Sequence record: MK327941.1
From: Escherichia phage vB_EcoM_G37-3
DNA: 64,000 nucleotides
Strand: one strand, 5' to 3'
This document shows, in pieces, positions 6,530-40,216 of this stretch. A program made the position numbers and the translations under genes. Position 1 is the stretch's first letter. Every line of letters begins with the position of its first letter. Below the pieces are notes generated by a model. The model made no database searches, was not told the DNA's origin, and was given only the letters and a program-made list of their open reading frames with translations.

Positions 6530-6530
6530 T

Positions 6531-6773: not shown

Positions 6774-6774
6774 A

Positions 6775-6951: not shown

Positions 6952-6952
6952 A

Positions 6953-7120
6953 TCAAAAACCTCGCTTAGTGAAATGCTCGATCATTTTATTGATACATGC
7001 AGCTTCACTATCGCCGGACACGTTCCAGCCGTATAGACCCCATCTAAAGCACATGGTAACAGTTCCATTGTGACGGCTTACCGTCACATCATTAAATTCT
7101 GGGATACTTCGCATAATCAT
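6953..7120 (-). CDS. small protein (55 aa), tandem paralog B
   Basis: Below ORF-track cutoff; C-terminus AACINKMIEHFTKRGF shared with paralog A; GAGGA RBS overlaps dda stop. Confidence 0.4.
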   Translation of the reverse strand: MIMRSIPEFNDVTVSRHNGTVTMCFRWGLYGWNVSGDSEAACINKMIEHFTKRGF

Positions 7121-7130
7121 AATAATTTCC

Positions 7131-8522: not shown

Positions 8523-8836
8523 TATCCTAAAATCCTCACCTTGCGAACACAGATAGTATTGAGTTCTCGCCGTACCCGTTCTTTTTCATATTCAGGAATT
8601 TTATATTCGATACCATCCCGAACAATTTCAGAAGACCGGATTATGCCAAATTTTCGTTTAGGTACAACCTTGTATTTCGGTTCACCCGCCAATAGACTCT
8701 CACAATAATCTATCTGATCACACATTGACGCTAACGCAGCATCATGTGTTTCGCAAGTTAGGACGCGACCCTTCGCGTCCACTGAGTATTGAAAGAATCC
8801 GTCTTTATCACGATAACATACAGCAAATACATGCAT
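8522..8836 (-). CDS. hypothetical protein (104 aa)
   Basis: ORF whose stop overlaps dda start. Confidence 0.5.
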   Translation of the reverse strand: MHVFAVCYRDKDGFFQYSVDAKGRVLTCETHDAALASMCDQIDYCESLLAGEPKYKVVPKRKFGIIRSSEIVRDGIEYKIPEYEKERVRRELNTICVRKVRILG

Positions 8837-9591
8837 TATAAACCTACCTTCGCTTTCATCAATTCAATCCACGACGCATCAATCGGAAGCCCGTATTTCA
8901 CGCGTTCTTTTTGTGCTGGCGTTAAGTTCTCATACTTAGAAAGAGATTCAATCAAAACGCTGGTATATTTTAGCACGATTTCGGTATTGTTTGCAATAGC
9001 CTTAAGTTTTTCTTCTTTCTTGTTGATTTCGCTAAGGGCTTGCTTGAGATCTGCAATTTTCTGATAACGTTCTTCCATACGGAAGAGAGTATTTTTAATC
9101 GCTCGCTCGGCTGCCTCTGCTTTCTCCGGTTCGTTGTGCTTTTTATGGCGCTCGATTGCTAATTTCTTTTCTTCGATTGCCATTTCCTGATTTTTGATGC
9201 GATTCTCGTTAAGTTCGATCCACTCGATGTACTTCGCACGTAGGGCAATTTCATCATCAGAAAGTTTACCGTTAGTTCCTAGTTCCTGGATCTCTTTAAG
9301 AGATTCGATAGTGTGATTGCCACGGAAAGAATTATATTTCAGTTTAACCGGAATTACATTGCCATCAACATATCCCAGATTGCAATCAATGCGCTCTAAG
9401 GAGAGTCCGTCATCACCTTCACCGAAAGCCTCACCGGAATAGACGCAATGAGTCTGTCGGTAAATGTTACGCACAGTGACTAAGCTCATAGAGAAGTCTT
9501 TGTTGCGACGTGAAGCACCAGCCATGATAGAGTTCAGACGGAAAACAACCAGAGCCAATTCTTCGTTAGATTTAAAAGCAAACAGTTTCAT
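8836..9591 (-). CDS. hypothetical coiled-coil protein (251 aa); at the T4 srd position
   Basis: ATG at 9591 behind AAGGAGAATCAATT leader; Srd assignment is positional only. Confidence 0.45.
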   Translation of the reverse strand: MKLFAFKSNEELALVVFRLNSIMAGASRRNKDFSMSLVTVRNIYRQTHCVYSGEAFGEGDDGLSLERIDCNLGYVDGNVIPVKLKYNSFRGNHTIESLKEIQELGTNGKLSDDEIALRAKYIEWIELNENRIKNQEMAIEEKKLAIERHKKHNEPEKAEAAERAIKNTLFRMEERYQKIADLKQALSEINKKEEKLKAIANNTEIVLKYTSVLIESLSKYENLTPAQKERVKYGLPIDASWIELMKAKVGL

Positions 9592-9616
9592 AATTGATTC
9601 TCCTTAGTTGGTATGT

Positions 9617-9648
9617 GTGTATTATTGTCTATCTGGTTTGTGCTGTCA
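9617..9648 (-). promoter_or_regulatory. sigma70-like early promoter (PeSL-like)
   Basis: TTGACA on minus strand followed by an A/T-rich -10 candidate; approximate. Confidence 0.4.
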
Positions 9649-9652
9649 ACAC

Positions 9653-10156
9653 TTAAATTAAAGAAAATTTGTAAATCTCTATCAGATCGCCGTTACACGC
9701 GTAAACTTCCTCGATCTCATCAAGGATCATGGTCGTCCCTGTCTTGTATATGCACTCTCGCTCATCTGCCAACATAGCATACAAAGACAGTCGAGTAGTC
9801 GGATTGTCATACTCTTTAGACACCACTCTGTCAATAGCATGTTCGTAATAATTCATGCAAGGCTTGGTAGGTTTTATTGCAATAATCTTTCCTGTTGCAT
9901 AAACATCGGTTGCAAAGTCCTCTGCGGTTGATTGCAGTGGCGTAAAGCTCATAGGACGCTCTACAACGAAAGAATCACCTACAATTAAGGTATCCAGCTT
10001 ACGGCCTTCTCTTTTGCTCACACCGCGATACAAGGCTTCGTGATGCACTAACCGTTCAGTCTTTTCAATCAATCCATTAAGGATCGACATATCGATATTT
10101 TCTTTAGAGTTCATCACTTCATCAATGATGTTAAGTTCTTCTGGTGTAAATTGCAT
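9653..10156 (-). CDS. putative ADP-ribosyltransferase (ModA/ModB-like)
   Basis: R (LYRG), S-x-T (MSFT) and E-x-E (ADEREC) in the order of the R-S-EXE signature; lies at the T4 modA/modB position. Confidence 0.45.
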   Translation of the reverse strand: MQFTPEELNIIDEVMNSKENIDMSILNGLIEKTERLVHHEALYRGVSKREGRKLDTLIVGDSFVVERPMSFTPLQSTAEDFATDVYATGKIIAIKPTKPCMNYYEHAIDRVVSKEYDNPTTRLSLYAMLADERECIYKTGTTMILDEIEEVYACNGDLIEIYKFSLI

Positions 10157-10157
10157 A

Positions 10158-10189
10158 ATAAAAAAGCCTCCAATCTTTCGACGGGAGGC
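10158..10189 (-). terminator. intrinsic terminator hairpin that also contains the downstream RBS
   Basis: Minus strand GCCTCCCGTCGAAAGATTGGAGGC then T6, immediately before ATG at 10156. Confidence 0.5.
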
Positions 10190-10237
10190 ATAATAAAACC
10201 ATTATAGAGTAGTGTCAATCACAAAGTGTATGTGATC

Positions 10238-10245
10238 TATAAATA
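10238..10245 (+). promoter_or_regulatory. T4-type late promoter TATAAATA
   Basis: Exact TATAAATA about 30 nt upstream of plus-strand HNH ATG at 10275. Confidence 0.6.
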
Positions 10246-10274
10246 AGTTTGTTAGACCTAAAGGAGACCACAAA

Positions 10275-11204
10275 ATGAACTATAAACGTATTTATGATAA
10301 CCTGATTGAACGTGCTAAGACTCGAACTATCGACGGATATACAGAAAAGCATCACATCATACCACGTTGTATGAATGGAAGCGATGATGATAGCAATCTA
10401 GTTAGACTCACCCCAGAGGAACATTACATTGCTCACCTTCTGTTAGTTAAGATTTATCCAGATAACAGTAAATTGGTTTATGCTGCAAATATGATGTGCG
10501 TTTCTTCTGATTCACATAATGGAGAAAGACAGTCAAATAAACGTCATGGTTGGTTGCGTAGAAAAATGGCAGAGGCACATAGTAAAAGAATCCGCGATAG
10601 AATGGAGAACGATCCTGAATATAGAGCTAAGGTTTCGGAATGGGCTAGAAAAATGGGTAAAGCTATGAAAGGAGTTAAACGAGGACCGGAATTTAGCAGA
10701 AAGTTGGCAGAAAGAAACAGAAATACCGTGATGAAAGAAGAAACTAAACGTAAAATCGGGGAAGCCAACAAAGGAAGGAAACGTACAGAAGAATATAAAA
10801 GAAAACATAGTGAGCGGTATAAGGGTGAAGGTAATCCGATGTATGGTAAACGAGGAAAGGACCATCCGGCATATGGTACTAAACCGTGGAACAACCAAAC
10901 ATCATTTGTTGAGCAGAAAGCATGGTGGCGTTTCGCTGGCATGTTCTATGACTGGTATCAGAGAGATATTGACCGTGGAACACATAAACGCCACGGCCAT
11001 AAGAGAATGTTAGACGAGTTAGGTTTTGTTGGTTGGCGAGAAAAAGAGCCAGCCGCAGCAAGACGGTCAATTGAGATGTTCGCTAAAGGCTGGAATCCTT
11101 ATGAAGACCAAGAATGGTTAGATTATGTTAATACCCGCTTTCCAAACGACGATAGTTTTCCGCGTTCTTCAACATATACAAGACAAACAGATCTTTCGCA
11201 GTAA
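10275..11204 (+). CDS. HNH homing endonuclease with NUMOD3-like repeats
   Basis: HNH motif EKHHIIPRCMNGSDDDSNLVRLTPEEHYIAH; repeats GNPMYGKRGKDHPAYG; GGAG RBS; only sizeable plus-strand gene in the region. Confidence 0.85.
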   Translation: MNYKRIYDNLIERAKTRTIDGYTEKHHIIPRCMNGSDDDSNLVRLTPEEHYIAHLLLVKIYPDNSKLVYAANMMCVSSDSHNGERQSNKRHGWLRRKMAEAHSKRIRDRMENDPEYRAKVSEWARKMGKAMKGVKRGPEFSRKLAERNRNTVMKEETKRKIGEANKGRKRTEEYKRKHSERYKGEGNPMYGKRGKDHPAYGTKPWNNQTSFVEQKAWWRFAGMFYDWYQRDIDRGTHKRHGHKRMLDELGFVGWREKEPAAARRSIEMFAKGWNPYEDQEWLDYVNTRFPNDDSFPRSSTYTRQTDLSQ

Positions 11205-11646
11205 GCCCCAACGCCAAGAATTTACACATAATGAAATGGAGTTGGTCGACGGCTTCTAGGTATGTTTCCAAACGATCCGCCTCTGATAAATCACTAAAGA
11301 GGCGGTTTCGTGCTTCCATATGATTGGCTTTCCAGTGTTTCCACACCGCGCTAGCGTCTTTCCCGTTAGACATACCACCCAACGCAGTATACAGTTCTCG
11401 TGTTTCATCGTCAAGCGCATTGTCATTAGCTCGAATAAAATCTAAAATCTCTCCACACGTTTTCAATTCGTCAATTTTTGCTACCCACGGACGGTCCTTA
11501 GACACCTGATCCTGCAACGCTTTTTGCATATTCATCATATGCTGGAACGGGTTATCGCCGTTGGCGATAATTTCTTTATATTTTTCTTCTGCAAAATTCA
11601 GAGTTTCCGCATTTACTAAGTGTGCACAAGAATTAAATTCTGACAT
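11128..11646 (-). CDS. 56: dCTP pyrophosphatase gp56 (MazG-like)
   Basis: 172 aa from ATG at 11646 (track start is GTG); size and N-terminus fit T4 gp56. Confidence 0.75.
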   Translation of the reverse strand: MSEFNSCAHLVNAETLNFAEEKYKEIIANGDNPFQHMMNMQKALQDQVSKDRPWVAKIDELKTCGEILDFIRANDNALDDETRELYTALGGMSNGKDASAVWKHWKANHMEARNRLFSDLSEADRLETYLEAVDQLHFIMCKFLALGLTAKDLFVLYMLKNAENYRRLESGY

Positions 11647-12698: not shown

Positions 12699-12902
12699 TT
12701 ATAGCTCAAATTTCATGAAAGTTCCTACACTTTCATTTTCATTCTCTCCGTTTTCATCTAAGCCAAATTTGTAGACACTACCATCTGGCGATGTGTAAGA
12801 GAATACACGAAAACGGCCTACCGAATCAAGTTCTGTAAATTCATATTCTTTTCCGGCTTCAAAAAGTGCATATGTGCTTTTAAGACATTTCATCGTAATC
12901 AT
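12699..12902 (-). CDS. hypothetical protein (67 aa)
   Basis: ORF with ATGA start/stop overlap to upstream mini-ORF. Confidence 0.45.
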   Translation of the reverse strand: MITMKCLKSTYALFEAGKEYEFTELDSVGRFRVFSYTSPDGSVYKFGLDENGENENESVGTFMKFEL

Positions 12903-13630: not shown

Positions 13631-14266
13631 TCAAGCGAATGTAGAAAGCAAATGTTTTGTTTCTTTCAGTTGTCGTTCAAGATCTTTGCGTTTCTCTTTA
13701 AGTTGCATTTTAGCATTATTTCGCTGTTTTTCAACATCTTTATCAATACTCTTATTCCAGTTATCAATATCAGAATAAGTTGGCATACCCAATTCTAGAC
13801 CTAATGCGGTTGGATACAGGGTAACAGTCCATAAACCGCTAATCTTCTTAAATAGGTCGGGGTGTAGTGTACTATCTACATCTTCCGGTGTCAACTCTTT
13901 TTCTTCTTTCAGTGGTGGGATCTCGTCATATGGTTCCAGTGCATTTACTTTAATATCAGATACCTCATCAAAGAATCCGCGTACATCCGCAGGAAATACA
14001 CAAGCAATTTCCCAACCGTGATCACGCAGAGAAGTAATATTTTTCACTCCCCCGCCATGTGTGATGATTGATGTGACATTGCCATCAAGGTCCACCGAAT
14101 TTACGAGAAATGGCTTATCGTCTGTCAGATCATTATAAAACTGTGCTTCGGCTGTAGTCATCTCCAGAAACAGATCTCGGATCGGACGACCATCAGGTGC
14201 GTTACCTTCCTTGAGAGTATAAAAGCGACTTACGATCCATTTTGGCGGTAAAGCATTAGCGATCAT
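13631..14266 (-). CDS. hypothetical protein (211 aa)
   Basis: ATG at 14266 behind AGGAG RBS. Confidence 0.55.
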   Translation of the reverse strand: MIANALPPKWIVSRFYTLKEGNAPDGRPIRDLFLEMTTAEAQFYNDLTDDKPFLVNSVDLDGNVTSIITHGGGVKNITSLRDHGWEIACVFPADVRGFFDEVSDIKVNALEPYDEIPPLKEEKELTPEDVDSTLHPDLFKKISGLWTVTLYPTALGLELGMPTYSDIDNWNKSIDKDVEKQRNNAKMQLKEKRKDLERQLKETKHLLSTFA

Positions 14267-14316: not shown

Positions 14317-15729
14317 TTAGAAAGTCATGTTATTTGCTAGCTCGTCGAGTTTTTCTCGTTTCTCGGCTTGCTGTGCGCTTTGTGGTTTAACTTGTGCATT
14401 CTCCTGATCTGCGATCTGGTTTGGAACTTCATACCAACGCTGATTTCCTTTTTTCACACCAACGTTAAACCGTGAATAGTAGTTCTTATCGCCGTAACGA
14501 GACTTGATCTGCTTCATGAGTTGGACGCCCATTTTAGCCAGGTCTTCGGTTTCGATAACACCCAACATAAAATCTGCTGTAGCCGGAAGACCTGCTGATT
14601 CAGCGGTATCACTCATGTTAAGGTCTGACGCATCCCAACCCGCGCGGGTAGTCTGTGCCGCAGTCCAACCAACAACATCCCACTTAACAAAAAATCCTCG
14701 CAGTTCTTCCGCAATCGCCTTAACTAGTGTGTAACTATTTTCAGAGTATACACGCAAGCGAGACGATGCGCAAATCCCCAGATAGTCAACAATCACAACA
14801 TCAGGTTTAAACTGTTTCTTGAGTCGCAATTCATTCATTAACGCCTCAAAGTGATTGGAGTTCGCGCCACCAGTCGGATACTGCTTGATCATCAATTTTC
14901 CAACCGGACGATCTCCGATCTTCTTATTCTTAACACGCTTCATACGTGCGGAATATTCCGCAAAAGAAACATTACCATTATCCAATTCATCTAATGTAAT
15001 GTCAAGCAAGTTTGCGTCAATACGTTTGGCTACGACATGCTCTGCCATCTCCATTGAGATATACAATACATCATAACCACATTCCATATAATCCGCAGCA
15101 AGAGAACACAATCCAAGCGATTTACCAACATTTACACCAGCAAGCAACACATTTAGCGTTTTTCTTTCCGCCCCTCCTTTCGTGATTTTATTCAACATCG
15201 GCAGCTTAAACGGGATCTTATTCGCCTTAGTCTGATATAGCAAGAATCGTTTTTCAAAGTCATTAAACCAGTCATGACCTACATCAGAATCAAACGTAAT
15301 TGATAGTGCTTCCTGCATAATCTCAGGAATAGCTCCCTCGCCAGGCAATTTCTTATTCTGTTTCTCTTTTGGTAGTTGTGCGTTCGCCTGAATCTCTAGC
15401 GCCCGTGACATTGCATTATACATGGCACGGTCACGAATAAATTTTTCGGTTTCCTTCATCAACCAATCAAGGTCTTCCGGTGTATTCTCAAGCGAATCAA
15501 GAAGAGTTTTAGCCCCTTCATATGTTGTCTGATTGCCTCTCTCCTTGTCTAAAGCAATCTGTAATGCAGTTGGCGTAGGAATATTGGAATATTCGTCTAC
15601 GTGCTTTTTAATCAGCTTATAAATCAGTTTTTCTTCGTCTTCGGTGAAGTAGTCCGCTTTAAGGTGAGGCCATACATTCGTAAAGAATGCGCCATTGTAA
15701 ATCAACTGTGAAAAGATAGTTTTAATCAT
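14317..15729 (-). CDS. 41: replicative DNA helicase gp41 (DnaB-like)
   Basis: 470 aa; Walker A GVNVGKS; DnaB-family C-terminal RecA fold; at the T4 gene 41 position. Confidence 0.92.
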   Translation of the reverse strand: MIKTIFSQLIYNGAFFTNVWPHLKADYFTEDEEKLIYKLIKKHVDEYSNIPTPTALQIALDKERGNQTTYEGAKTLLDSLENTPEDLDWLMKETEKFIRDRAMYNAMSRALEIQANAQLPKEKQNKKLPGEGAIPEIMQEALSITFDSDVGHDWFNDFEKRFLLYQTKANKIPFKLPMLNKITKGGAERKTLNVLLAGVNVGKSLGLCSLAADYMECGYDVLYISMEMAEHVVAKRIDANLLDITLDELDNGNVSFAEYSARMKRVKNKKIGDRPVGKLMIKQYPTGGANSNHFEALMNELRLKKQFKPDVVIVDYLGICASSRLRVYSENSYTLVKAIAEELRGFFVKWDVVGWTAAQTTRAGWDASDLNMSDTAESAGLPATADFMLGVIETEDLAKMGVQLMKQIKSRYGDKNYYSRFNVGVKKGNQRWYEVPNQIADQENAQVKPQSAQQAEKREKLDELANNMTF

Positions 15730-31109: not shown

Positions 31110-31368
31110 AAATCGCCCTCAGTTCTTTATAGCCTCCAATGTGCTCGTTGTCAATGAATATCTGGGGGTATACAAACCGGAGGCTCTTTGAGTTCAGCCT
31201 CCCAGCCAGTTCTTCAATCATATCACGGTCGGGAATAATGTCAACCCCGACCTGCTTGAATACTGGTTTAAGTGTATACGGAATACCCAGGTCATCCAGT
31301 AGCTTCATTGCACTAATACAACCATAACAATGATAAGCCTCTTTCGGTATGCCGTATATCTCGATCAT
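31099..31368 (-). CDS. nrdH: glutaredoxin-like protein NrdH
   Basis: 89 aa; redox motif CYGC near N-terminus; next to nrdG/nrdD. Confidence 0.7.
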   Translation of the reverse strand: MIEIYGIPKEAYHCYGCISAMKLLDDLGIPYTLKPVFKQVGVDIIPDRDMIEELAGRLNSKSLRFVYPQIFIDNEHIGGYKELRAIYDY

Positions 31369-31841
31369 TTCTCAGCCTTTAATCTTTCTAGTTCTTCTTC
31401 CAGTTCCTTGATCCGTTGGTCACGTTCAAAGTCACGCTGTAGCTTAGTGGCAAATACTCGCTTAAACTGATTGTAATCATCGATTTTAAACACTTCTTCT
31501 TCGCCATAGCGACGCACAGAAACTTCGTAGTTATTGAAGAATTGTTGCATCATTGCTTCGGATGATAGTTCTGCTGATACTACTTTAAAATATTGATCTT
31601 CGGTAGGTGAAAACCAATTGCAAGCATAAAGATAAACCTTTTCATTGTCTGGACACTGGTAAGCCTTACCATCGATTTCAATCACAGAAACATATTCAGG
31701 TATACTAGATGAATCAATAGCTAAGACTTTAAACGCACGGTCCCCGATAAACTCGGAGATCACACGATTCGCATCACTGGTTGCAAATGCTTTACGCGCT
31801 TGTTCGTTTTTCCACTGATAGGTCATACCAACAACAAACAT
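31365..31841 (-). CDS. paralog-family protein P1 (one beta-domain plus C-terminal helix)
   Basis: GMTYQWKNEQARKAF...AFKVLAIDS...IEIDGKAY...QYFKVV; ATG at 31841 behind GAGGT RBS. Confidence 0.55.
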   Translation of the reverse strand: MFVVGMTYQWKNEQARKAFATSDANRVISEFIGDRAFKVLAIDSSSIPEYVSVIEIDGKAYQCPDNEKVYLYACNWFSPTEDQYFKVVSAELSSEAMMQQFFNNYEVSVRRYGEEEVFKIDDYNQFKRVFATKLQRDFERDQRIKELEEELERLKAEK

Positions 31842-31842
31842 A

Positions 31843-32667
31843 TTACCAACCTCGCTCTTTACCAATCAAAAATTCAACTTCACGACGTTTAATGTCTTCT
31901 TGAAGGTCTTTAATCTTCTGGCGATCTTGCATGATTTCATCCATCTTGTCAAGTGCCGCAATGAAATCATCGAAACGTTCAAAGGTTTTACCTTCATTTG
32001 CTTCGCCAAATTTAACCATTGTCAGGCCGTAACGACTACTAAACAGACGTTTCAACTGTCCAACGATTTTAGAATCAGTGGTTATAATTTCCAATTCTTC
32101 TACTTCACGAAAGAATTTTCTATCAGAATCAATAAACCAGCTAGTTCCTTTATGGTCTCTATCTTCGGTTGCGCTCATTAGAGTATGGTCTTTACCATCA
32201 ATTTCAATTACATCAATTTGCCCACATGGACTAACATTTTTAACAGTAAAAGGTCTATAATTTATTGCTCGTGCAATAACATAATTAAGGTTAGATACGT
32301 TTTCAGCATAATGGCAGAAGTCGGTCATAGCATTCGCATCTTTCCAAGTATAAGTTTTACCAACTTCCCATTTCTGGGGAACTTCTTCAACTTCACGAAA
32401 GAATTTTCTATCGAATGGACTAAAGAAATATGTTGCAGTCCAAATGTCTTTTCCTGTAGCAGTTTTCGCCGTATGATAAACACCGTCTAGCTCTATTGCA
32501 TTAATCCAACCGTTACCCTCGATCTCGATGATGGTAAATGGCTTGTCACCAATAGCTGCACTAATATCGCTGTTAAGTGGAGAAAGAACACCTTCTCCGT
32601 TAGTAATAAACTCAGTTTTAGCGTTTTCATCTTTCCAGGTGTAAGTTTTACCAATTTCCCATTTCAT
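31843..32667 (-). CDS. paralog-family protein P2 (two tandem domains)
   Basis: Two copies of W-E-[IV]-GKTYTWKD...PFT[IV]...IEIDGK...DRKFFREVEE. Confidence 0.6.
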   Translation of the reverse strand: MKWEIGKTYTWKDENAKTEFITNGEGVLSPLNSDISAAIGDKPFTIIEIEGNGWINAIELDGVYHTAKTATGKDIWTATYFFSPFDRKFFREVEEVPQKWEVGKTYTWKDANAMTDFCHYAENVSNLNYVIARAINYRPFTVKNVSPCGQIDVIEIDGKDHTLMSATEDRDHKGTSWFIDSDRKFFREVEELEIITTDSKIVGQLKRLFSSRYGLTMVKFGEANEGKTFERFDDFIAALDKMDEIMQDRQKIKDLQEDIKRREVEFLIGKERGW

Positions 32668-32679
32668 AATATATTCCCC

Positions 32680-33165
32680 TTAACCGATTTTATCAAGTTC
32701 GTTTAATGCTTTCTCTGCTTCCTGTATAGCTTGCACTCTTTCCGGCATTTTGTCAAGAAAATCTTTCAACTCTTCAAAACTGGAGATATGACGCAAGGCA
32801 TTAGCACCGATAGCCGCATGTGATTTGCATTCAAAGCGGATTTTATAATTATCCATAGCCAATTTGAGAAGGTCTATTAGATCATATTCATGACCAGGCA
32901 ATAAAACTTCTTTGAAGCACGCTCGGTCGCCATCGGAAAACCATATATTATCACCAACATCGATAGAACTAATATAATCCCCTTCGTGATTATAGATTGA
33001 ACGTACATTACCCCAACGGTCTACCGTAGCGACAGTAAATGGTTTATCTAGATATGTAAACACACCATCAATATTAGGTTTTTGTTCGTAACGCCAACAA
33101 TCACGCAAAATGCGCTTTTCGTCCTCACCAACCAACTTATATGTCTTCCCTTCTTCCCATTTCAT
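32680..33165 (-). CDS. paralog-family protein P3
   Basis: MKWEEGKTYK...PFTVATVD...; C-terminal LKDFLDKMPERV helix; ATG at 33165. Confidence 0.55.
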   Translation of the reverse strand: MKWEEGKTYKLVGEDEKRILRDCWRYEQKPNIDGVFTYLDKPFTVATVDRWGNVRSIYNHEGDYISSIDVGDNIWFSDGDRACFKEVLLPGHEYDLIDLLKLAMDNYKIRFECKSHAAIGANALRHISSFEELKDFLDKMPERVQAIQEAEKALNELDKIG

Positions 33166-33169
33166 AATA

Positions 33170-33695
33170 TCATCTCTCATTTTTGATACGTGATTCTAAT
33201 TGGATCATACGGTCGCGCGTTTGCTTGTATTCTCGAATAGCACCGATCCGGCTAGGCATACCATCAAGCACGCTCTTAATCCCTTCTATGGTAGTGATTT
33301 TAGCAATGCTATTATGTAACCCCATCTTATCGATCAACTGAATGTCGTAGGCTTCCATAAGCAGACCCAGACGTTCTAAAGTTAGGTCTTCTTTTTTCTT
33401 CCGATTCTGGAATCTTAGGTTCAATAGTAACTTCGGTAAAGAAACGGCGCTCACCTGACCAAAACCACACACCGGAACAACCAATAGGGGATTCTTTTAG
33501 CGTCATAGAGTCGTAACCACTGCCGATAATAGTAATTTCTCTAACATCACCATCATCGTCAATGTCTTCTACCATAAAAGGGCGACCAGCCAACAAGTCA
33601 ACAATACATCTGTTAATAGACGACGAAAATTTAGTCAGTTCGGCTTTCGACGCTTCGCATTCAATCTTGTAAGTTTTACCAACTTCCCATTCCAT
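33170..33695 (-). pseudogene. paralog-family member P4 interrupted by a frameshift
   Basis: N-terminal domain in frame of 33327..33704, C-terminal helix (GMPSRIGAI) in frame of 33170..33484; frames meet at an A6 run near 33392..33397. Confidence 0.45.
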
Positions 33696-33705
33696 AATAA
33701 TCACC

Positions 33706-34209
33706 TCAAATAATTTTCACTGGAATACTATTAACAATCTTGTATTGTACTTGATTGTCAGACCCCCGCCACGGCTTCTTCGTTGGCATATCTTTAATAT
33801 AACGACCATCGATGAACATGTCAACTGATTCTACAATTTTTCTTTGCTCATCATTCAATTGGTCAAGGGTATAACCGGACCATAGCCAAATATCTTTATT
33901 TGGCATCCATGATTTTACTTCATCGATGATCCGCTGTACACCCTTTAAATTGCGTTTATACAGTGGATCGCCACCTAAGAATGTTAGCCCCTGAATAAAA
34001 TCAGGTCTAAGCAGATCCAGAATCAATCCCATTGTATCATCGGTGAATGGTTCCCCGTTCTTAGGATTGAGTATGCTAGCATTAAAGCAACCATCACATG
34101 CGTGTGAACATCCGGTAACGTAAAGGGAGACTCTCACTCCCTCACCGTTAACCATATCACAATCTTTAATATCGGCATAGCGTAGTTTGCCGTATGTATC
34201 AGAACTCAT
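33706..34209 (-). CDS. nrdG: anaerobic ribonucleotide reductase activating protein NrdG (radical SAM)
   Basis: CSHACDGC cluster, GGDPL motif; aligns with T4 NrdG; ATG at 34209. Confidence 0.85.
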   Translation of the reverse strand: MSSDTYGKLRYADIKDCDMVNGEGVRVSLYVTGCSHACDGCFNASILNPKNGEPFTDDTMGLILDLLRPDFIQGLTFLGGDPLYKRNLKGVQRIIDEVKSWMPNKDIWLWSGYTLDQLNDEQRKIVESVDMFIDGRYIKDMPTKKPWRGSDNQVQYKIVNSIPVKII

Positions 34210-34351
34210 ATTCAATTACCCCGAACTCGTTTACAATCTGCGCTTTATAGTAACCACCGCGAGATGCCAATAGATAAGCTGGGCTTAGGTATTCGTATTC
34301 ACGGATTTCTACTTGTGCGTTTTCAGTTTCCCAAATCAGTAAAGTCCACAT
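34199..34351 (-). CDS. small protein (50 aa)
   Basis: Below track cutoff; AGGAGAATCAAAT leader after an early promoter; stop overlaps nrdG start. Confidence 0.35.
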   Translation of the reverse strand: MWTLLIWETENAQVEIREYEYLSPAYLLASRGGYYKAQIVNEFGVIEYEF

Positions 34352-34393
34352 ATTTGATTCTCCTGTAAAGTTGTATCTCGTCTTGATGAATAT

Positions 34394-34422
34394 AGTATAG
34401 GGGATCTCGCGATCCCCGTCAA
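34394..34422 (-). promoter_or_regulatory. early promoter (PeSL-type) TTGACG-N17-TATACT
   Basis: Spacer hairpin GGGGATCGCGAGATCCCC; approximate. Confidence 0.5.
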
Positions 34423-34431
34423 GCGTTTATT

Positions 34432-34953
34432 TTAATTTTTTCGAATGTATTCAGACCATTCCTTCCCTGTCAGTTCGGTCCCATTCTGGAAACTGAAATA
34501 TTCATACGGCATCGAGTCAAGATAAAACAGGATCATACATCGCGCCATATAATACCAATCACGATTAAAGTAAACTACGTTATCACCATTACCATCAGCA
34601 CCTTTATCATAACCATCGCGGGTACGGGCAACCCATTGAATAGTATCATTTTTCTCACGGATAATAACAGGTTCCCAATATCCAGCACATCCAGCATGAC
34701 CACACGAACAAGTAAGGAAATATTGACCTTTTGCTTTGTTGTCATCCCATTCACGATGGATTGGTTCGATCTCGTGAAACAATGCCAAGCAATCATGATT
34801 ATGCAACACTGGCTTACCATCAATCAATGCATGGAATGTATACAAACGACCAGTAGACAGATAGCTATCCTCACGCTCAACCAGTTCAATAGCAATCTTT
34901 TTAGCTCGTTCTTTGTGTCGTTGTGCTTTACGCTTACGGTTTAATGATTTCAT
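34432..34953 (-). CDS. hypothetical Cys-rich protein (173 aa)
   Basis: Cluster CSCGHAGCAGYW; ATG at 34953 behind GGGGTG. Confidence 0.5.
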   Translation of the reverse strand: MKSLNRKRKAQRHKERAKKIAIELVEREDSYLSTGRLYTFHALIDGKPVLHNHDCLALFHEIEPIHREWDDNKAKGQYFLTCSCGHAGCAGYWEPVIIREKNDTIQWVARTRDGYDKGADGNGDNVVYFNRDWYYMARCMILFYLDSMPYEYFSFQNGTELTGKEWSEYIRKN

Positions 34954-34970
34954 ATTCACCCCACACATTA

Positions 34971-35510
34971 TCAAAGGTCGCGATATAGTACATTATGAAA
35001 ATGAGAACTTGCATTACCAATATTGTAGATAATAAATTCTTCATCCGGCGCTTGCGCTACAAATTGAGTATGAGCAACCGCCACAACCTTAAAAATACGA
35101 TCCGTGATCTTGTGTTTAATTTCTGCCCCTACTTCCATAGGAACATATTCATTTGTTTCTGTTTCAGTCGCAAAACAGCCATCTTCTTCATAAGCACGAA
35201 TAAATCGGTCGCAATCAGTACGCTTAACAAATTCAAGAGTATATAATTCTCGTGAATTGTCGGTATAGACCAATACAGAATTATTATGATAGCGAATCAC
35301 ATACAGGTTATTATCATCGTCAATTACGCAAAAGCTACGGATTCCTTCGCCTTGACTCCAGCAGATATTAACCACCGTTCCTCTAATAAAAAAACTTTCC
35401 TTTAAATTAAAACTAGCCAATGTGCTAGCGTGCATTTTAACAACAACACCATCACCAATTTCCAGTTTACGAAGTTTAACTTCTTTGCTCAGTACACAAA
35501 ACATCATCAT
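34971..35510 (-). CDS. hypothetical protein (179 aa)
   Basis: ATG at 35510 behind GAGAGGA RBS and early promoter. Confidence 0.5.
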   Translation of the reverse strand: MMMFCVLSKEVKLRKLEIGDGVVVKMHASTLASFNLKESFFIRGTVVNICWSQGEGIRSFCVIDDDNNLYVIRYHNNSVLVYTDNSRELYTLEFVKRTDCDRFIRAYEEDGCFATETETNEYVPMEVGAEIKHKITDRIFKVVAVAHTQFVAQAPDEEFIIYNIGNASSHFHNVLYRDL

Positions 35511-35539
35511 GTTGTCCTCTCGTTGTTTTCGATGTGAGC

Positions 35540-35567
35540 ATTATACATTAGCTAATCATGTTGTCAA
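35540..35567 (-). promoter_or_regulatory. sigma70-like early promoter TTGACA-N16-TATAAT
   Basis: Consensus hexamers on minus strand; approximate. Confidence 0.55.
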
Positions 35568-35576
35568 CACCCCAAA

Positions 35577-35605
35577 ACGAAAAAGCCGACCCTTTCGGAT
35601 CGGCT
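35577..35605 (-). terminator. intrinsic terminator after nrdD
   Basis: Minus strand AGCCGATCCGAAAGGGTCGGCT followed by TTTTCGTTTT. Confidence 0.6.
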
Positions 35606-35610
35606 GAAAT

Positions 35611-37473
35611 TTACATGTGCTTAACGCGGTTTACCATCTCGGAGTGTTTCCCGTGGTTGAATGGACGCAGATCAACAGATCCAAGATATCCACTAACGCG
35701 ACGGATAACATTCATCTTTTCCAGATTGTCATTACCGCAATCAGGACAAACAAAACCAGACTCGGTCGCTCTCATTTCCTTAGTGGATCCGCATACATGA
35801 CATACATCAGAAGGAGTATTAACACCGAAGTAGTGCAATTTATCCATTGCATAGTCTACTACAGTTTCAAGACCTTTCAGGTTGTTTTTCATGTCTGGGA
35901 ACTCAACATAAGAGATCATGCCACCGGACGCCAGCCAGTGATAATCTTTCTCAAAGTCGATTTTCTCAAATGGAGTGACTTTCCGGTCTACGTCAAGATG
36001 GAATGAGTTGGTGTACCAGTCTTTATCGGTAGCACCCTTAACAATACCAAATTGCTCTCGGTCCAGTCGATTAAATCGATAGCAAAGGCTCTCGGCTGGC
36101 GTACCGTAAAGACTAAACCCAAGTCCGGTTTCATCCTTCCATTTTTCAGTATAATGACGCAAGATCTTAAGAATATGTTTACCGTATCGCTGCGCATCTT
36201 CCGAATCAAACGGATGAACATCAAACAGGACGCTCAATACCTCATGTAAACCAATATATCCAAGAGAGATACTAGCGCGACCATCTTTCAGAACTTCCAA
36301 AATTTCATCGTTTTGATGAATACGGAAAAATGCACCTTCTGTATACAGTACAGGAGCAACATTGGCTTTAGCCCCTTTTAAAGCGTCTACGCGACTCATG
36401 AGCGCATCAAAGCAAATAGGCATACGATTAGCTAGCTCTTGTTCGAATAGCTCAATTCTGCGCATTACAGACGCTTTACCAGCACGACGCGCGGCAATAA
36501 GGGCAATACGCGGAAGATTTAGAGTCACAACACCTAAGTTATTACGTCCGTCTAATACTTCTTCGCCTTTCTCATTATGCCACACACCCAGGAAGCTACG
36601 ACAACCCATCGGGCTAACCGGAACACTAGATCCGGTGATACTACGGTTATTCTTCGCAGAGATATAATCAGGGTAAAGACGCTTACTCGAACATTCCAAT
36701 GCAAGTTGCTTAATGTCGTAGTTCGGATCTTCCGGTTTAAGGTTTAATCCTTCTTCTAAGAACATCACCAGCTTAGGAAACACCGGAGTGATACCATCTT
36801 TACCTAAACCTTTAGTTCGAACGTTCAGGATCGCTTTCTGAATCAGTTTTTCTTCCCAGCTAGTACCCATACCAAAGGTTAAAGTCACAAAAGGCGTTTG
36901 ACCGTTGGTGGAGAACAAAGTGTTGATTTCATATTCCAACGCTTGATACCCGTCTAAAGTTTCTTTTTCTGTCTTCTCTTGTGCATAGAGAGTATCAGCT
37001 TTGATTCCGTAGGTTTCGGCATCAGCAAGGTGTTTATGATATGTTTTCTCAACATACGGTGCTAACACCTGATCGATGTTTGCGATTGTGGTCCCGCCAT
37101 ATTGATGACTTGCCACCTGTGCGATAATTTGAGCGGTTACAGCACAAGCAACGCCGATTGATTTCGGACTTTCGATTTGTGCGCTACCCAATTTAAAACC
37201 ATTCTCTAACATGTCTTTTAGATTAACAAGACAGCAGTTAGTAAACGGCATAGCGGGTGCATAATCCATATCATGATAATGAATATCACCGTCTACATGC
37301 GCTTTATAGATGTGCTCAGGTAACACGGTTTTAGCAATCTGTTTAGACACAGCACCAGCAATCAGATCTCGACGTGTCGGGAATGTTCGCGCGTCTTTGT
37401 TCGCGTTCTCTTTGCTTACTTCGTTTTCTTTACCCGTTGCGATCTCTGTAATGTCTTTGATTAGTTTTTCCAT
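35611..37473 (-). CDS. nrdD: anaerobic ribonucleoside-triphosphate reductase NrdD (class III)
   Basis: 620 aa; C-terminal zinc ribbon CHVCGS...CPDCG and glycyl radical motif RVSGYLG; continuous ORF, no intron. Confidence 0.92.
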   Translation of the reverse strand: MEKLIKDITEIATGKENEVSKENANKDARTFPTRRDLIAGAVSKQIAKTVLPEHIYKAHVDGDIHYHDMDYAPAMPFTNCCLVNLKDMLENGFKLGSAQIESPKSIGVACAVTAQIIAQVASHQYGGTTIANIDQVLAPYVEKTYHKHLADAETYGIKADTLYAQEKTEKETLDGYQALEYEINTLFSTNGQTPFVTLTFGMGTSWEEKLIQKAILNVRTKGLGKDGITPVFPKLVMFLEEGLNLKPEDPNYDIKQLALECSSKRLYPDYISAKNNRSITGSSVPVSPMGCRSFLGVWHNEKGEEVLDGRNNLGVVTLNLPRIALIAARRAGKASVMRRIELFEQELANRMPICFDALMSRVDALKGAKANVAPVLYTEGAFFRIHQNDEILEVLKDGRASISLGYIGLHEVLSVLFDVHPFDSEDAQRYGKHILKILRHYTEKWKDETGLGFSLYGTPAESLCYRFNRLDREQFGIVKGATDKDWYTNSFHLDVDRKVTPFEKIDFEKDYHWLASGGMISYVEFPDMKNNLKGLETVVDYAMDKLHYFGVNTPSDVCHVCGSTKEMRATESGFVCPDCGNDNLEKMNVIRRVSGYLGSVDLRPFNHGKHSEMVNRVKHM

Positions 37474-37484
37474 TGTATCACCTA

Positions 37485-37509
37485 TGAAAAAGCGGGATTT
37501 TCTCCCGCT
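37485..37509 (-). promoter_or_regulatory. GC hairpin plus T-run about 12 nt upstream of nrdD start (attenuator or operator candidate)
   Basis: Minus strand AGCGGGAGAAAATCCCGCT then TTTTTC, running into the nrdD RBS. Confidence 0.4.
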
Positions 37510-37518
37510 CGTTGATAG

Positions 37519-38013
37519 TTATTTTACCAGTTCTGCTAATTCTTTTTCCGCCGATTCCAGTTCAGCCTTAAGCTGTTTAATCTCTTGTCGCTTCTTATTA
37601 GCGGCTTCCTGCTTACTATTTCGGATAACCTGATCTAGATACAACTCCCAATCCTGAATATTTTTGATAATGTAACCGTCAACATTAATTGGTCGGAGAT
37701 TCAGTAAAGCTTCCAGTTTAGTCGCAAAAACTTTAATTGCTGGTGTGAAGTATTCATATTCGTTATCTTCAAACCAATAACCTAGACTTGCATTATCAAT
37801 ACGAAGACGAAGTTCAAGATCAAGGTCTTTATCTTCGGTGTAAAGATCTTTCACCTGACCCAGCGAACTAACAACAACTTTAAAACGAATTTTATCTACA
37901 CCACCAAACACATCAGTAAGTATACCAGCAATTGAGCTATTAGCGCAAGATTGGTCGCTGAATGCGTCAAGGTTTTCTTTAGTTACAGTATACCAAACAT
38001 CTTGTACCCACAT
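37519..38013 (-). CDS. paralog-family protein P0 (divergent)
   Basis: KIRFKVVVSS...GYWFEDNEYEYF and C-terminal coiled coil resemble the P1-P7 family. Confidence 0.45.
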   Translation of the reverse strand: MWVQDVWYTVTKENLDAFSDQSCANSSIAGILTDVFGGVDKIRFKVVVSSLGQVKDLYTEDKDLDLELRLRIDNASLGYWFEDNEYEYFTPAIKVFATKLEALLNLRPINVDGYIIKNIQDWELYLDQVIRNSKQEAANKKRQEIKQLKAELESAEKELAELVK

Positions 38014-38043
38014 AATATAATCCTCTCGTTGTTAAGTGGGAGT

Positions 38044-38071
38044 ATTATAGCATACTCCCTTCGCATGTCAA
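38044..38071 (-). promoter_or_regulatory. early promoter (PeSL-type) TTGACA-N17-TATAAT
   Basis: -10 inside inverted repeat GGGAGTA/TACTCCC; approximate. Confidence 0.55.
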
Positions 38072-39246
38072 GCACTAACTTTTTTCTTTACTGCTTTCAC
38101 CTTCTGGCGAATTGCTCGAATCTCTTCGATCTCTTTTTCAGTATCTTTAACAATTTCTTTGCGATTCTGAATATCTTTATCGAGATTATCATCAAGTTTA
38201 GGCAGCATGTCAATCAAGAACTTTTTAAAGTCTTTCAGGTTTCGGATAACAGCACCTTCACCCATTACCGCCACGCCTACACCATCCGGCAGGTCGCCAA
38301 ACAGTTTAACCAGTTCAGACAGATGATCATGATCTTCTAGTGCTTCTTCCGGTTCAGATGGCAGTTCCACAAAGTAATAACGTTCATCATTGCTGATCAG
38401 GTGATACCAGCAAAGCCCAAAAGATTTAGGAGTATATTCTACACCACCAACTTCAACTGCGTCAACACTTCCGAAAGAATCTACTTTAGTTACCTTAAAT
38501 CCATGTTCCAGCGTTTTAATAATTTCAATAACATGACTGGATACGGTTTCAGTATTAAACCAATGAGGCAAATTATGTGGATTTGGCTTGTATCGTTCGC
38601 CTACTTTAAATCTCTGACCACGCTCTTGCATACGGACATATTCAACTCGCGTGATTTCCGCGAAGTATTCAAATTCGCCACCGTCAAACACAGAAGCCCA
38701 TTGATCACAAAAACGATCTGCCTTAACAGTTTCACCTTTCGCGGTGATCATGGTAGCTGATCCGTGCAATTCTTCTTCAACTAAAAAGCCATATTCGACA
38801 AAATCAACAAGTTTCATAGCTTCTTTGTGATCTGGATCATGCTCTCCCCAGAATCGCTTAAATTCTTGCAAACCTTCTGGGGTAAACGAATAACATTTAC
38901 CTTTTTCAAAGTAAGTCGGCATTGCATCCTCTTTCTTGTTCATCGCTTCGTATGCCTCTTTTGAGATGCGTTTAAAGTATTTACGCTCATTGTGCATAAT
39001 CATAGTAGCCCAATAATCAACAATATCATTAGCGGAATAAACTACATCTCCAGCTTCAATAGTAATAACATGACCGTGGTCATCTTTTTCTAATACTTTA
39101 AAGCCCTTTTCTACGATTTCAGCAACACGAATATGACCACGGCGCGAAGCATCGGTCAGAATAATTGAATAGCGAGAAAAGTCTAGAAACTCATCTTTAC
39201 CGCCTTCACGGAATGCATAGTAATGACCTTCAAAGAATTTAGCCAT
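38068..39246 (-). CDS. paralog-family protein P5 (three tandem domains)
   Basis: Three G-F-[KL]-V...ERKYF-like repeats plus C-terminal coiled coil; GAGAGGATTATATT leader. Confidence 0.6.
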   Translation of the reverse strand: MAKFFEGHYYAFREGGKDEFLDFSRYSIILTDASRRGHIRVAEIVEKGFKVLEKDDHGHVITIEAGDVVYSANDIVDYWATMIMHNERKYFKRISKEAYEAMNKKEDAMPTYFEKGKCYSFTPEGLQEFKRFWGEHDPDHKEAMKLVDFVEYGFLVEEELHGSATMITAKGETVKADRFCDQWASVFDGGEFEYFAEITRVEYVRMQERGQRFKVGERYKPNPHNLPHWFNTETVSSHVIEIIKTLEHGFKVTKVDSFGSVDAVEVGGVEYTPKSFGLCWYHLISNDERYYFVELPSEPEEALEDHDHLSELVKLFGDLPDGVGVAVMGEGAVIRNLKDFKKFLIDMLPKLDDNLDKDIQNRKEIVKDTEKEIEEIRAIRQKVKAVKKKVSA

Positions 39247-39277
39247 AATATAATCCTCTCGTTGTTTAGATGGGAGT

Positions 39278-39306
39278 ATCTTACTACTCCCGTTTCATCA
39301 TGTCAA
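39278..39306 (-). promoter_or_regulatory. early promoter (PeSL-type) TTGACA-N17-TAAGAT
   Basis: -10 inside inverted repeat GGGAGTA/TACTCCC; approximate. Confidence 0.5.
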
Positions 39307-39869
39307 GCGTTAAATGACTTTTGGATCTCTTTCAGTTCAGCTACTTTATCGGCGCTATATTTTGCTTGATGTTCCATGCGCTTAAGCTCACCTTTGATAT
39401 AGGTTTCTAGCTTAGGTTTATTCTCAATCAGAAAATCTTTCAAGTCATCGGCATTTTTAAAGTATAGCTGATTATCAAAGCTAAAATCTTCCAGCGTCAA
39501 TGATACCAAAGAAGACTTCGCAAACAAGTTAATCAGATCTTCCAGAGATTCTTCTTTCTTAATTGGTTTCATTTCTTCAAACTGCTTTTTAGTGATGCGT
39601 TTAAAGTATTTTCGCTCGTTTGCAGCAATCAGAACAGATGCACCTTCATACTCATGAGTTTCTACCAGATACACACGCCCCATCGCATCAACAGTGAGAA
39701 CTTTAAAGCCGTTACAAAGCACGTCATACAAGAACTTATTATGTTGCGGACATCGTTTGATAAATTCTGCGACTGTTTCTGCACTACGGAAAGTATAGTA
39801 ACGACCTCGTTCAAAAACAGCGTCATTGGGTGACTTAACCGAATATACTTTGTATGTTTTCTGTACCAT
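39303..39869 (-). CDS. paralog-family protein P6
   Basis: GFKVLTVDAMGRVYLVE...ERKYFKRI; C-terminal LKDFLIENKPKL; ATG at 39869. Confidence 0.55.
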   Translation of the reverse strand: MVQKTYKVYSVKSPNDAVFERGRYYTFRSAETVAEFIKRCPQHNKFLYDVLCNGFKVLTVDAMGRVYLVETHEYEGASVLIAANERKYFKRITKKQFEEMKPIKKEESLEDLINLFAKSSLVSLTLEDFSFDNQLYFKNADDLKDFLIENKPKLETYIKGELKRMEHQAKYSADKVAELKEIQKSFNA

Positions 39870-39883
39870 AATATAATCCTCTA

Positions 39884-40156
39884 TCATTTCACTAATTGAA
39901 CAGCACGGAACAGAATGCGGTCACACGGAAGCAGCATAAATTCCCAACGCGGATCAAAGTCTTTAGCGGTATATGTTTTCCCATCAACCGAGATTTCACT
40001 TACATAACCAATAGGTGACACTTTAAGAACAGTAAATCCATTCTTGATGACTTCGTAGGTATCTTTCAATCCTTCGTAGTCATCCTCTAGGAAGTCTTTA
40101 CGTGCTTGCTCAGATTTAAAAACATAGGCCACACCGGATTTAAACATCTTACGCAT
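39884..40156 (-). CDS. paralog-family protein P7 (single domain, 90 aa)
   Basis: GFTVLKVSPIGYVSEISVDGKTY...RILFRAV; AAGGAGAATCAACA leader. Confidence 0.5.
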   Translation of the reverse strand: MRKMFKSGVAYVFKSEQARKDFLEDDYEGLKDTYEVIKNGFTVLKVSPIGYVSEISVDGKTYTAKDFDPRWEFMLLPCDRILFRAVQLVK

Positions 40157-40187
40157 TGTTGATTCTCCTTCTTGATTAGATGGGAGT

Positions 40188-40216
40188 ATTTTACTACTCC
40201 CATTTCATGTTGTCAA
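40188..40216 (-). promoter_or_regulatory. early promoter (PeSL-type) TTGACA-N17-TAAAAT
   Basis: -10 inside GGGAGTA/TACTCCC inverted repeat; approximate. Confidence 0.5.

Follow-up and report, generated by a model that had tools for sequence, protein, structure and literature searches.

Probable paralogues of the T4 GoF/Frd.2 early-protein family in an RB49-like coliphage, with barrel domains that are exchanged as cassettes among strains

Introduction

The present study examined a 64,000-nucleotide (nt) stretch of the genome of Escherichia phage vB_EcoM_G37-3 (sequence record MK327941.1), hereafter called the window, in which a previous sequence-only reading had noticed a family of genes that share a domain of 80 to 90 amino acids (aa) and that lie beside nrdD, nrdG, and nrdH, the genes of the anaerobic ribonucleotide reductase (RNR). 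We found that nine genes of the window, designated g1 to g9, are very probably Krischvirus paralogues of the GoF/Frd.2 early-protein family of phage T4, as judged by profile comparison, and that their barrel domains evolve as exchangeable cassettes, old and divergent alleles having been recombined into otherwise near-identical genomes. The genes are an expanded member set of a recently named and functionally obscure phage family, neither a new domain nor a rapidly amplifying array.

The family was defined by Kim et al. in 2025 as the GoF/Frd.2/MotB.1 group of early proteins with an 'LSm-like fold' (PMC12152347). T4 GoF, also named ComC-alpha, is an early, non-essential protein that reaches ~20,000 copies per cell and is found as monomers and dimers. 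There is a genetic interaction between goF and rho, in that growth restricted by rho is suppressed by the goF mutations D25Y and G84R. GoF(D25Y) stabilises the mRNA of gene 41 post-transcriptionally, wild-type GoF and MotB.1 having failed to stabilise the reporter RNA. A GoF pull-down from uninfected Escherichia coli recovered only GoF. T4 frd.2 was the sole function-unassigned 'Fit' gene in a genome-wide CRISPRi-ART knock-down screen (PMC11879866).

Results

Gene layout and domain copies

The window derives from an RB49-like, T4-type phage of the family Straboviridae, genus Krischvirus, and a 10-kb region of it is 96-99% identical to the Krischvirus coliphages G5211, GEC-3S, Phi1, and RB49, with 97-99% for the first three of these. 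All eight genes noticed previously were confirmed as open reading frames (ORFs) on the minus strand, and the order of transcription is gene 49, g8, g7, g6, g5, nrdD, three small ORFs, nrdG, g4, g3, g2, g1, nrdH. The members are listed below with the results of hidden Markov models (HMMs) of the domain and of PHROG profiles; in tests with an HMM built from six clear copies, copies that were not used to build it are referred to as untrained.

g8, 39884..40156, minus strand: barrel only, 90 aa, no C-terminal domain; trained HMM E 2.8e-27
g7, 39303..39869, minus strand: one barrel (aa ~15-104), C-terminal domain with LKDFLIENKP, long helix
g6, 38068..39246, minus strand: three tandem barrels (38953-39246, 38641-38922, and 38347-38619, minus strand; three HMM domain matches), then a C-terminal domain and E/K-rich helix
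g5, 37519..38013, minus strand: the most divergent barrel, then a helical tail; untrained HMM E 3.3e-3; phrog_3710 E 2.4e-4
g4, 33170..33695, minus strand: barrel and C-terminal domain, split by a frameshift (barrel ORF 33327-33695, C-terminal domain frame 33170-33484, minus strand, from alignment to the intact Phi1 ORF051); phrog_5347 matches both halves
g3, 32680..33165, minus strand: barrel, C-terminal domain (LKDFLDKMP), and helix; the protein modelled with AlphaFold2
g2, 31843..32667, minus strand: two tandem barrels (32380-32667 and 32086-32376, minus strand; HMM domain matches 1e-39 and 5e-42), then a C-terminal domain and helix
g1, 31365..31841, minus strand: barrel, C-terminal domain, E/K-rich helix; stop codon overlaps the nrdH start
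g9, 13631..14266, minus strand: ninth member; one barrel and a long tail; lies immediately downstream of gene 41, which encodes the helicase (14317-15729)

The equivalents in Phi1 are ORF060-057 (g8-g5) and ORF051-048 (g4-g1). One barrel followed by a variable C-terminal domain is the arrangement of g1, g3, g4, g5, g7, and g9, the exceptions being g2 with two barrels, g6 with three, and g8, which lacks the C-terminal domain. The sequence-only reading had described eight genes with one to three domain copies each and about eleven copies in total, and this count was recovered exactly (1 + 2 + 1 + 1 + 1 + 3 + 1 + 1 = 11); the family is nevertheless larger than the eight genes then recognised, as g9 at 13631-14266 contributes a twelfth copy. 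The neighbour of g9, gene 41, is the gene whose mRNA is stabilised by T4 GoF(D25Y).

The similarity among the copies is significant and not compositional. Pairwise identity among the products is 25-36% over the ~90-aa unit (blastp), and the six-copy HMM recovered, among 647 window ORFs, the untrained members g6 (E 7.9e-16), g7 (1e-5), g5 (3.3e-3), and g9 (3.1e-6). Independent support for paralogy came from PHROG profiles that match across members: g8 belongs to phrog_16115 with cross-matches to phrog_5347 and phrog_622, g7 and g6 match phrog_8944 (E 1e-93 and 1.7e-209, respectively), g6 also matches phrog_622 over three stretches (E 6.5e-20), and g9, which is called dc2 in the RB49 record, matches phrog_5347 (E 0.004). 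The N-terminal, central, and [DE]RK[FY]F.EV motifs described in the sequence-only reading are all visible in the alignment of the copies, whose invariant columns are Y9, F43, and F89. The rest of the near-identical G5211 genome, 100 kb in length, contained no further copy at E<=1. ORF054 and ORF055, between nrdG and nrdD, and a 67-aa ORF at 12699-12902 (minus strand, phrog_9181) with the first-strand-like sequence 'FEAGKEYEF' were considered as members and rejected, as they belong to different PHROGs and their best matches were not significant (E 0.34 for ORF054/ORF055 and 0.44 for the 12699-12902 ORF).

A C-terminal LKDF..MP motif had been attributed to most members, which holds in part: the motif is strict in g3, g6, and g7 only, looser in g4 and g2, and absent from the tail-less g8. 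A profile of the five C-terminal domains of g2, g3, g4, g6, and g7 reached g1 at E 0.005 and g5 at E 0.19, and did not match g9.

Membership in the GoF/Frd.2 family

A profile of the 12 window barrels, from which T4 GoF and Frd.2 were left out, matched residues 4-91 of T4 GoF at E 3.7e-11 and residues 2-87 of Frd.2 at E 4.5e-5. Both T4 proteins belong to phrog_622 (E 4.6e-38 and 4.1e-46), which was also matched by seven of the eight genes noticed previously, all but g5, at E 6.5e-20 to 3e-4. GoF additionally matches phrog_5347, the family of g1-g4, over residues 4-137, nearly its full length. RefSeq labels the orthologs of g6 and g7 as frd.2 or 'goF mRNA metabolism modulator'; the latter annotation is carried by the g7 ortholog Phi1 ORF059, and frd.2/goF annotation by the g6 orthologs in Phi1, RB49, and JSE. 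MotB.1 of T4, which is said to share the barrel fold, was not significantly detected by the window profile (E 0.42) and matched phrog_622 weakly (E 0.0013), and the window genes are assigned by profile to the GoF/Frd.2 branch and not to the MotB.1 branch.

Databases of named domains were silent. Pfam and NCBIfam gave sub-threshold noise only for all nine products and hold no model of the domain, no LSM or Hfq Pfam family was matched by the nine products at E<=1, and the products had no Pfam sequence match to FeoA (PF04023). Only close Krischvirus relatives were retrieved when g3, g6, or the domain alignment served as the query of a word-indexed homolog search, and an exhaustive profile search found 75 cluster representatives among 1.84 billion, including other two- and three-barrel forms. 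About nine of the 75 were taken as unrelated repeats: these are long and match the profile many times, each time briefly and in part. Five metagenome proteins from this search (P0034, P0064, P0078, P0080, and P0090; 800-1,640 aa) match the central 30 profile residues 8-9 times each and probably represent an unrelated repeat family that shares a D..G.V..I strand motif. The barrel family is small and appears to be phage-restricted.

The sequence-only reading did not recognise the domain as any named family. That stands insofar as no Pfam or NCBIfam model exists, and falls insofar as the window profile, phrog_622, and the RefSeq labels identify it as the GoF/Frd.2 N-terminal barrel. The reading would have yielded to a match with a well-characterised family, and because the family is named yet poorly characterised, this came about only by half. 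As a correction of annotation, the label 'hypothetical protein' can be replaced by membership in the GoF/Frd.2 family for seven products per Krischvirus genome.

The likeness to GoF and Frd.2 includes the homologous ~90-aa N-terminal five-strand barrel with shared phrog_622 membership, the succession of one barrel, acidic linker, and small C-terminal domain in g1, g3, g4, g5, g7, and g9, the same nearest solved folds (FeoA/SH3 group), and a place among dispensable and, in the window, putatively early genes of T4-type phages. The differences lie in number and arrangement: the window has nine genes with 12 barrels, two- and three-barrel polypeptides among them, whereas T4 has three single-barrel genes; the window products carry long E/K-rich terminal helices that the T4 proteins lack; most window copies are clustered around nrdD, nrdG, and nrdH; and Krischvirus falls outside the subfamily Tevenvirinae in the current taxonomy.

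Predicted fold

From the AlphaFold2 model of g3 (22-row alignment; mean predicted local distance difference test score [pLDDT] 80, ~90 in the barrel), we predict with confidence that the domain is a five-strand SH3-like beta-barrel. The strands are residues 8-11, 43-48, 54-58, 64-66, and 84-87, strands 1 and 2 being separated by two helices. Beyond the barrel, the model has an alpha-beta-beta-alpha C-terminal domain, predicted at lower confidence, and ends in a long helix. The fold is that of this one paralogue; a model of the three-barrel g6 (nine close orthologs, pLDDT 48.5) was not used.

No match of the g3 model below E 0.18 was found by Foldseek in the PDB. The nearest solved folds, all weak, are SH3-topology barrels of the FeoA group, namely the Mib repeat, FeoA, and the RNA polymerase-binding Tudor domains of CarD, UvrD, and PcrA; FeoA as the nearest bacterial fold agrees with the result of Kim et al. 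for the GoF family (PMC12152347). The likeness to FeoA and to the SH3-like domain of the DtxR/IdeR type is limited to this weak fold match, with no match of sequence families and no metal ligands noted. Against BFVD the model had 41 matches at E<=1e-3, of which those with names are all uncharacterised phage proteins, mostly T4-like, from phages of hosts that include Aeromonas, Proteus, Citrobacter, Morganella, Serratia, Acinetobacter, Klebsiella, Edwardsiella, and Pectobacterium.

The name under which the family was published refers to the LSm fold, and the window barrels share with Hfq, Sm, and LSm proteins a small barrel of five bent beta-strands. They differ in lacking the N-terminal helix (their helices stand between strands 1 and 2), in having no LSM/Hfq match, and in being mostly acidic; Hfq and Sm proteins were absent from both fold-match lists of the g3 model, and Kim et al. 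obtained no confident multimer models for the family (PMC12152347). We assign the genes to the GoF/Frd.2 family and do not count them among the members of the Sm/LSm superfamily.

Barrel alleles on a fixed array

Gene number and order are the same in Phi1, G5211, JSE, UPWr_E1, Brandy, and a 170-kb metagenomic genome (seven genomes with the window), the single departure being a g2 with one barrel in the metagenomic genome; the g6 orthologs in metagenomes measure 391-392 aa in eight of eight cases. The paralogues are only 20-50% identical, and the duplications are therefore old. Between strains, the segments nonetheless form a marked mosaic, as seen in the following amino acid identities.

nrdG, nrdD (except the intron-split nrdD of JSE), gp49, and nrdC: 96-100% between strains
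C-terminal domains of g1-g5: 80-100% between strains
Barrels of g1, g2b, g3, g4, and g5 in some strains (letters mark the barrels within a gene): 42-67%

The affected barrels differ from strain to strain, their nucleotide identity is 53-75% versus 95-100% in the flanks, and the boundaries of the alleles fall at domain borders inside the genes. A census of 58 matching Krischvirus records, with one further non-Krischvirus match for g4, gave the following distribution of identity relative to the window.

g3 barrel: 28 records at at least 90%, 30 below 60% (listed examples ~43%), none between
g1 barrel: 36 records at at least 95%, nine at 60-80%, 13 below 60%
g4 barrel: 51 records at at least 90%, eight below 80%
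g5 barrel: 52 records at at least 90%, one at 80-90%, five below 60%
g9, unlike g1-g5: 93.8-100% in all 58 Krischvirus records

Two to four discrete, anciently diverged alleles are present at each of g1, g2b, g3, g4, and g5, in combinations that differ per strain. Synonymous divergence (dS) is saturated between divergent barrel alleles (0.9-2), and the ratio of nonsynonymous to synonymous divergence (dN/dS) is 0.2-0.35, compared with 0.02-0.2 in the C-terminal domains. Saturated dS together with dN/dS of ~0.3 indicates old alleles under purifying selection that were imported by recombination, and for the same two reasons positive selection on the barrels was not demonstrable. Gene conversion from paralogues within the genome was ruled out as the source, as the alternative alleles are closest to the positional ortholog.

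The number of barrels varies in g2, which has a single barrel in the isolates AV108 and ELT4 and in several metagenomes, with the junctions of the one-barrel form located within repeated sequence motifs (KWE.GKTYTWKD or DRKFFREVEE). In Makalu phages, a g2 that seemed to have three barrels (tblastn span of 1,174 nt) proved to be an artefact that joined g2 with g1 at a normal locus. The tandem amplification with rapid turnover proposed by the sequence-only reading is accordingly better worded as a stable array with cassette-like exchange of barrels and occasional repeat loss: exchange of barrel alleles and a g2 with one or two barrels were indeed found, whereas gene order is fixed in seven genomes, the duplications are old, and the frameshift in g4 is private. 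The host-interaction or anti-defence role that it associated with such turnover is compatible with the allele pattern as a putative one.

The pattern is reversed in g7, whose C-terminal domain has 55-58% aa identity in JSE, UPWr_E1, and Brandy and whose barrel has ~79% in every strain but G5211. The unrelated ORFs at 34432-34974 and 34971-35510 (minus strand; Phi1 ORF054 and ORF055; phrog_8242 and phrog_14838) are mosaic too, with 49-77% aa identity in JSE, UPWr_E1, and the metagenome, so recombinational allele replacement is not restricted to the barrel family.

Genomic context and predicted promoters

The family flanks the anaerobic RNR genes, although the bracketing of nrdH-nrdG-nrdD that had been proposed needs amendment: the left cluster, g4-g1, lies inside the nrdG-nrdH interval as a tightly packed nrdG-g4-g3-g2-g1-nrdH run, and the right cluster, g8-g5, lies between gene 49 and nrdD. 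Given intergenic gaps of 1-12 nt and overlapping stop and start codons throughout this run, the left cluster looks co-transcribed with nrdG and nrdH. Three promoter/stem-loop cassettes were predicted in the right cluster.

40182..40216, minus strand: sigma-70-type cassette upstream of g8, PeSL-like
39272..39306, minus strand: cassette upstream of g6
38038..38071, minus strand: cassette with a perfect TTGACA-16-TGcTATAAT, upstream of g5 and nrdD

Each combines a TTGACA-N16/17-TATAAT-like predicted promoter with a GGGAGTA/TACTCCC stem-loop that contains the -10 box. These three are the only stems of this type in the 64 kb, where the chance expectation is zero. As predicted sigma-70 consensus early promoters fused to stable stem-loops in the variable region of an RB49-type genome, they are candidate relatives of the PeSL promoter/stem-loop cassettes of RB49 and Phi1 described by Arbiol et al. 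in 2010 (PMC2839356). They differ in that the window stem encloses the -10 box, whereas the PeSL has a poly-G/poly-C stem beside the promoter, and in that the allele boundaries in the window fall at intragenic domain borders, not at the cassettes.

Placement next to nrd genes recurs in two divergent T4-like contigs. In one, a gene with two barrels immediately precedes an nrdH-like gene; in the other (L013, from a metagenome), five multi-barrel genes lie side by side and adjoin nrdD and a gp49-like gene. The products of the five genes of the L013 array (5920-11569) measure 143-354 aa, and each has two or three barrel matches that range from weak to clear. The array stands just upstream of a GIY-YIG/EndoVII-dimerisation fusion and nrdD, and SIR2, NADAR, RlaP, and HD-domain genes precede it at a distance of a few kb. 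The T4 homologs are located away from an nrd context, and we therefore read the placement as conserved synteny of a variable region, not as a functional link.

Discussion

By analogy with T4 GoF, the products of g1 to g9 would most likely be early, non-essential host-takeover proteins that act on mRNA fate or on host proteins. With modest confidence, we favour as the best overall explanation that they are GoF/Frd.2-family early host-takeover proteins acting on mRNA fate, with barrels that evolve as cassettes; the RNA-fate mechanism taken by itself is a more tentative proposal. Each product carries one to three ~90-aa barrels, predicted to be SH3-like ('LSm-like'); in eight of the nine genes, the barrels lead into a small C-terminal domain of predicted alpha/beta type and then into a long, charged helix. 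The right cluster would be expressed early from its three predicted sigma-70 promoter/stem-loop cassettes, and the left cluster would probably be co-transcribed with nrdG and nrdH. The products, as suggested by homology only, would be abundant and individually dispensable, with the barrel as the module of target recognition and the conserved C-terminal part serving self-association. They might act post-transcriptionally on the fate of mRNA, in the pathway of the goF suppressors of rho-restricted growth and of the stabilisation of gene 41 mRNA by GoF(D25Y).

The two suppressor positions of T4 GoF bear on this proposal. In two independent alignments, the D25 column is aromatic in four window barrels (Y in g2b; F in g4, g6a, and g6b), and the G84 column is basic in five (K in g2a, g2b, g6a, and g7; R in g4), both columns being altered at once in g2b (Y and K), g4 (F and R), and g6a (F and K). 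The D25 column borders an indel-rich loop, so its equivalence is approximate. On these residues, some natural paralogues would already carry suppressor-like states. A further suggestion, which we regard as unlikely, is that several of them are natural counterparts of the gain-of-function form of GoF that stabilises mRNA.

Several points weigh against our preferred explanation. Ten of the 12 barrels are acidic, with a net negative charge and isoelectric points of 4.3-6.2, a property that suits direct RNA binding poorly and points to proteins as targets. In T4, the reporter RNA was stabilised by the GoF D25Y mutant only, not by the wild-type protein or MotB.1. Early expression is something that we infer from consensus motifs only, and the profile of the C-terminal domains does not match the C-terminal domain of T4 GoF, the protein whose dimers suggested self-association. 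The same acidity and the same inertness of wild-type GoF are what would be expected if the barrels bound proteins instead of RNA, as early adaptors or inhibitors of RNA polymerase, Rho, or RNase E, or of variable defence proteins, with alleles diversified by an arms race. Such an account would draw further on the protein-binding SH3/Tudor modules among the nearest solved folds (the Mib repeat, FeoA, and the CarD, UvrD, and PcrA Tudor domains), on the genetic interaction of goF with rho, and on discrete allele classes at intermediate frequency (g3, 28 versus 30 of 58 records, with similar classes in g1, g4, and g5) beside C-terminal domains and core genes that stay 85-100% identical. We nonetheless consider it less likely than not, if only slightly less probable than the RNA-fate mechanism: the pull-down from uninfected E. 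coli yielded GoF alone, the fold matches are all weak, the saturated dS and dN/dS of ~0.3 describe old alleles under purifying selection with no demonstrable positive selection, and the mosaic of the neighbouring unrelated ORFs (34432-35510) suggests that the region may simply be recombination-prone.

Two other accounts appear far less probable. An unnamed domain family caught in rapid tandem amplification and decay, as first proposed, would agree with the lack of a Pfam or NCBIfam model, the tandem genes with up to two or three barrels, the frameshift in g4, and the one or two barrels of g2 depending on strain. It is very improbable given that the domain is the N-terminal domain of GoF/Frd.2 (PMC12152347), by which 'unnamed' is largely refuted, and that the layout is shared by Phi1, G5211, JSE, UPWr_E1, Brandy, and, with its single-barrel g2, the metagenomic genome, among paralogues whose 20-50% identity marks old duplications and with a frameshift that is private to one genome. 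Equally hard to credit is a role as accessory factors of the anaerobic RNR or of iron handling, in which FeoA-like barrels would support the Fe-S activase NrdG; the left cluster does lie between nrdG and nrdH, the right cluster abuts nrdD, the placement recurs in the two divergent T4-like contigs, and FeoA is among the top structural neighbours, yet the variable regions of T4-type phages habitually lie between conserved metabolic genes.

A further idea, which we regard as unlikely, is that variable host factors or defences select for polymorphism of the barrel, which would serve as a diversified module of recognition; the discrete barrel alleles at g1, g2b, g3, g4, and g5 on otherwise near-identical genomes speak for it. 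Were this so, the array would act as a set of combinable tools by which phage mRNA is protected or host factors are neutralised, and tandem barrels on a self-associating tail would confer multivalency. RB49-type phages offer a richer natural experiment than T4, having nine genes and 12 barrels in single-, double-, triple-barrel, and barrel-only forms, discrete barrel alleles on isogenic backgrounds, and natural variation at the two suppressor positions. The paper of Kim et al. makes no mention of 'RB49', 'paralog', 'duplicat', or barrel-cassette polymorphism (PMC12152347), and, as far as the searchable literature shows, the polymorphism of barrel alleles and the natural suppressor-like residues are undescribed; together they make the function of the family experimentally approachable.

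The frameshifted copy and neighbouring features

Relative to the intact Phi1 ORF051, g4 has a 2-bp deletion at 33392-33397 (minus strand; GAAGAAAAGGAAGAAG -> GAAGAAAAAAGAAG) that keeps the barrel and moves the C-terminal domain to the +1 frame. The deletion was found in none of 51 phage records, the best of which is 97.8% identical and each of which aligned with a 2-nt gap; an undisrupted g4 of 528 nt is present in G5211, JSE, Brandy, and Makalu_002, and UPWr_E1 and the metagenomic genome have a divergent allele of 489 nt that is likewise intact. The deletion is a private mutation or a sequencing error. The disrupted copy had been read as a sign of turnover; the disruption is real in this record, and, being private to one genome, it is no evidence on the dynamics of the family. 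With its barrel intact, the truncated product would resemble the naturally barrel-only g8. The deletion site reads GAA GAA AAA AGA AGA, in which an A6 run precedes AGA, a rare codon for Arg, and it is pure speculation that ribosomes slipping by +1 at this point would return to the wild-type frame with one Glu missing.

Immediately after nrdD is a strong terminator-like hairpin (35584-35605, minus strand), which has six G-C pairs among its nine and a T-run behind it, and a perfect TTGACA-16-TATAAT stands at 35567-35540 (minus strand), ahead of ORF055. The nrdD of the window (35611-37473) is uninterrupted; that of phage JSE (L006, 5109-7731) is split by a homing-endonuclease insertion, and that of the divergent contig L013 is likewise split, by an I-HmuI-like endonuclease.

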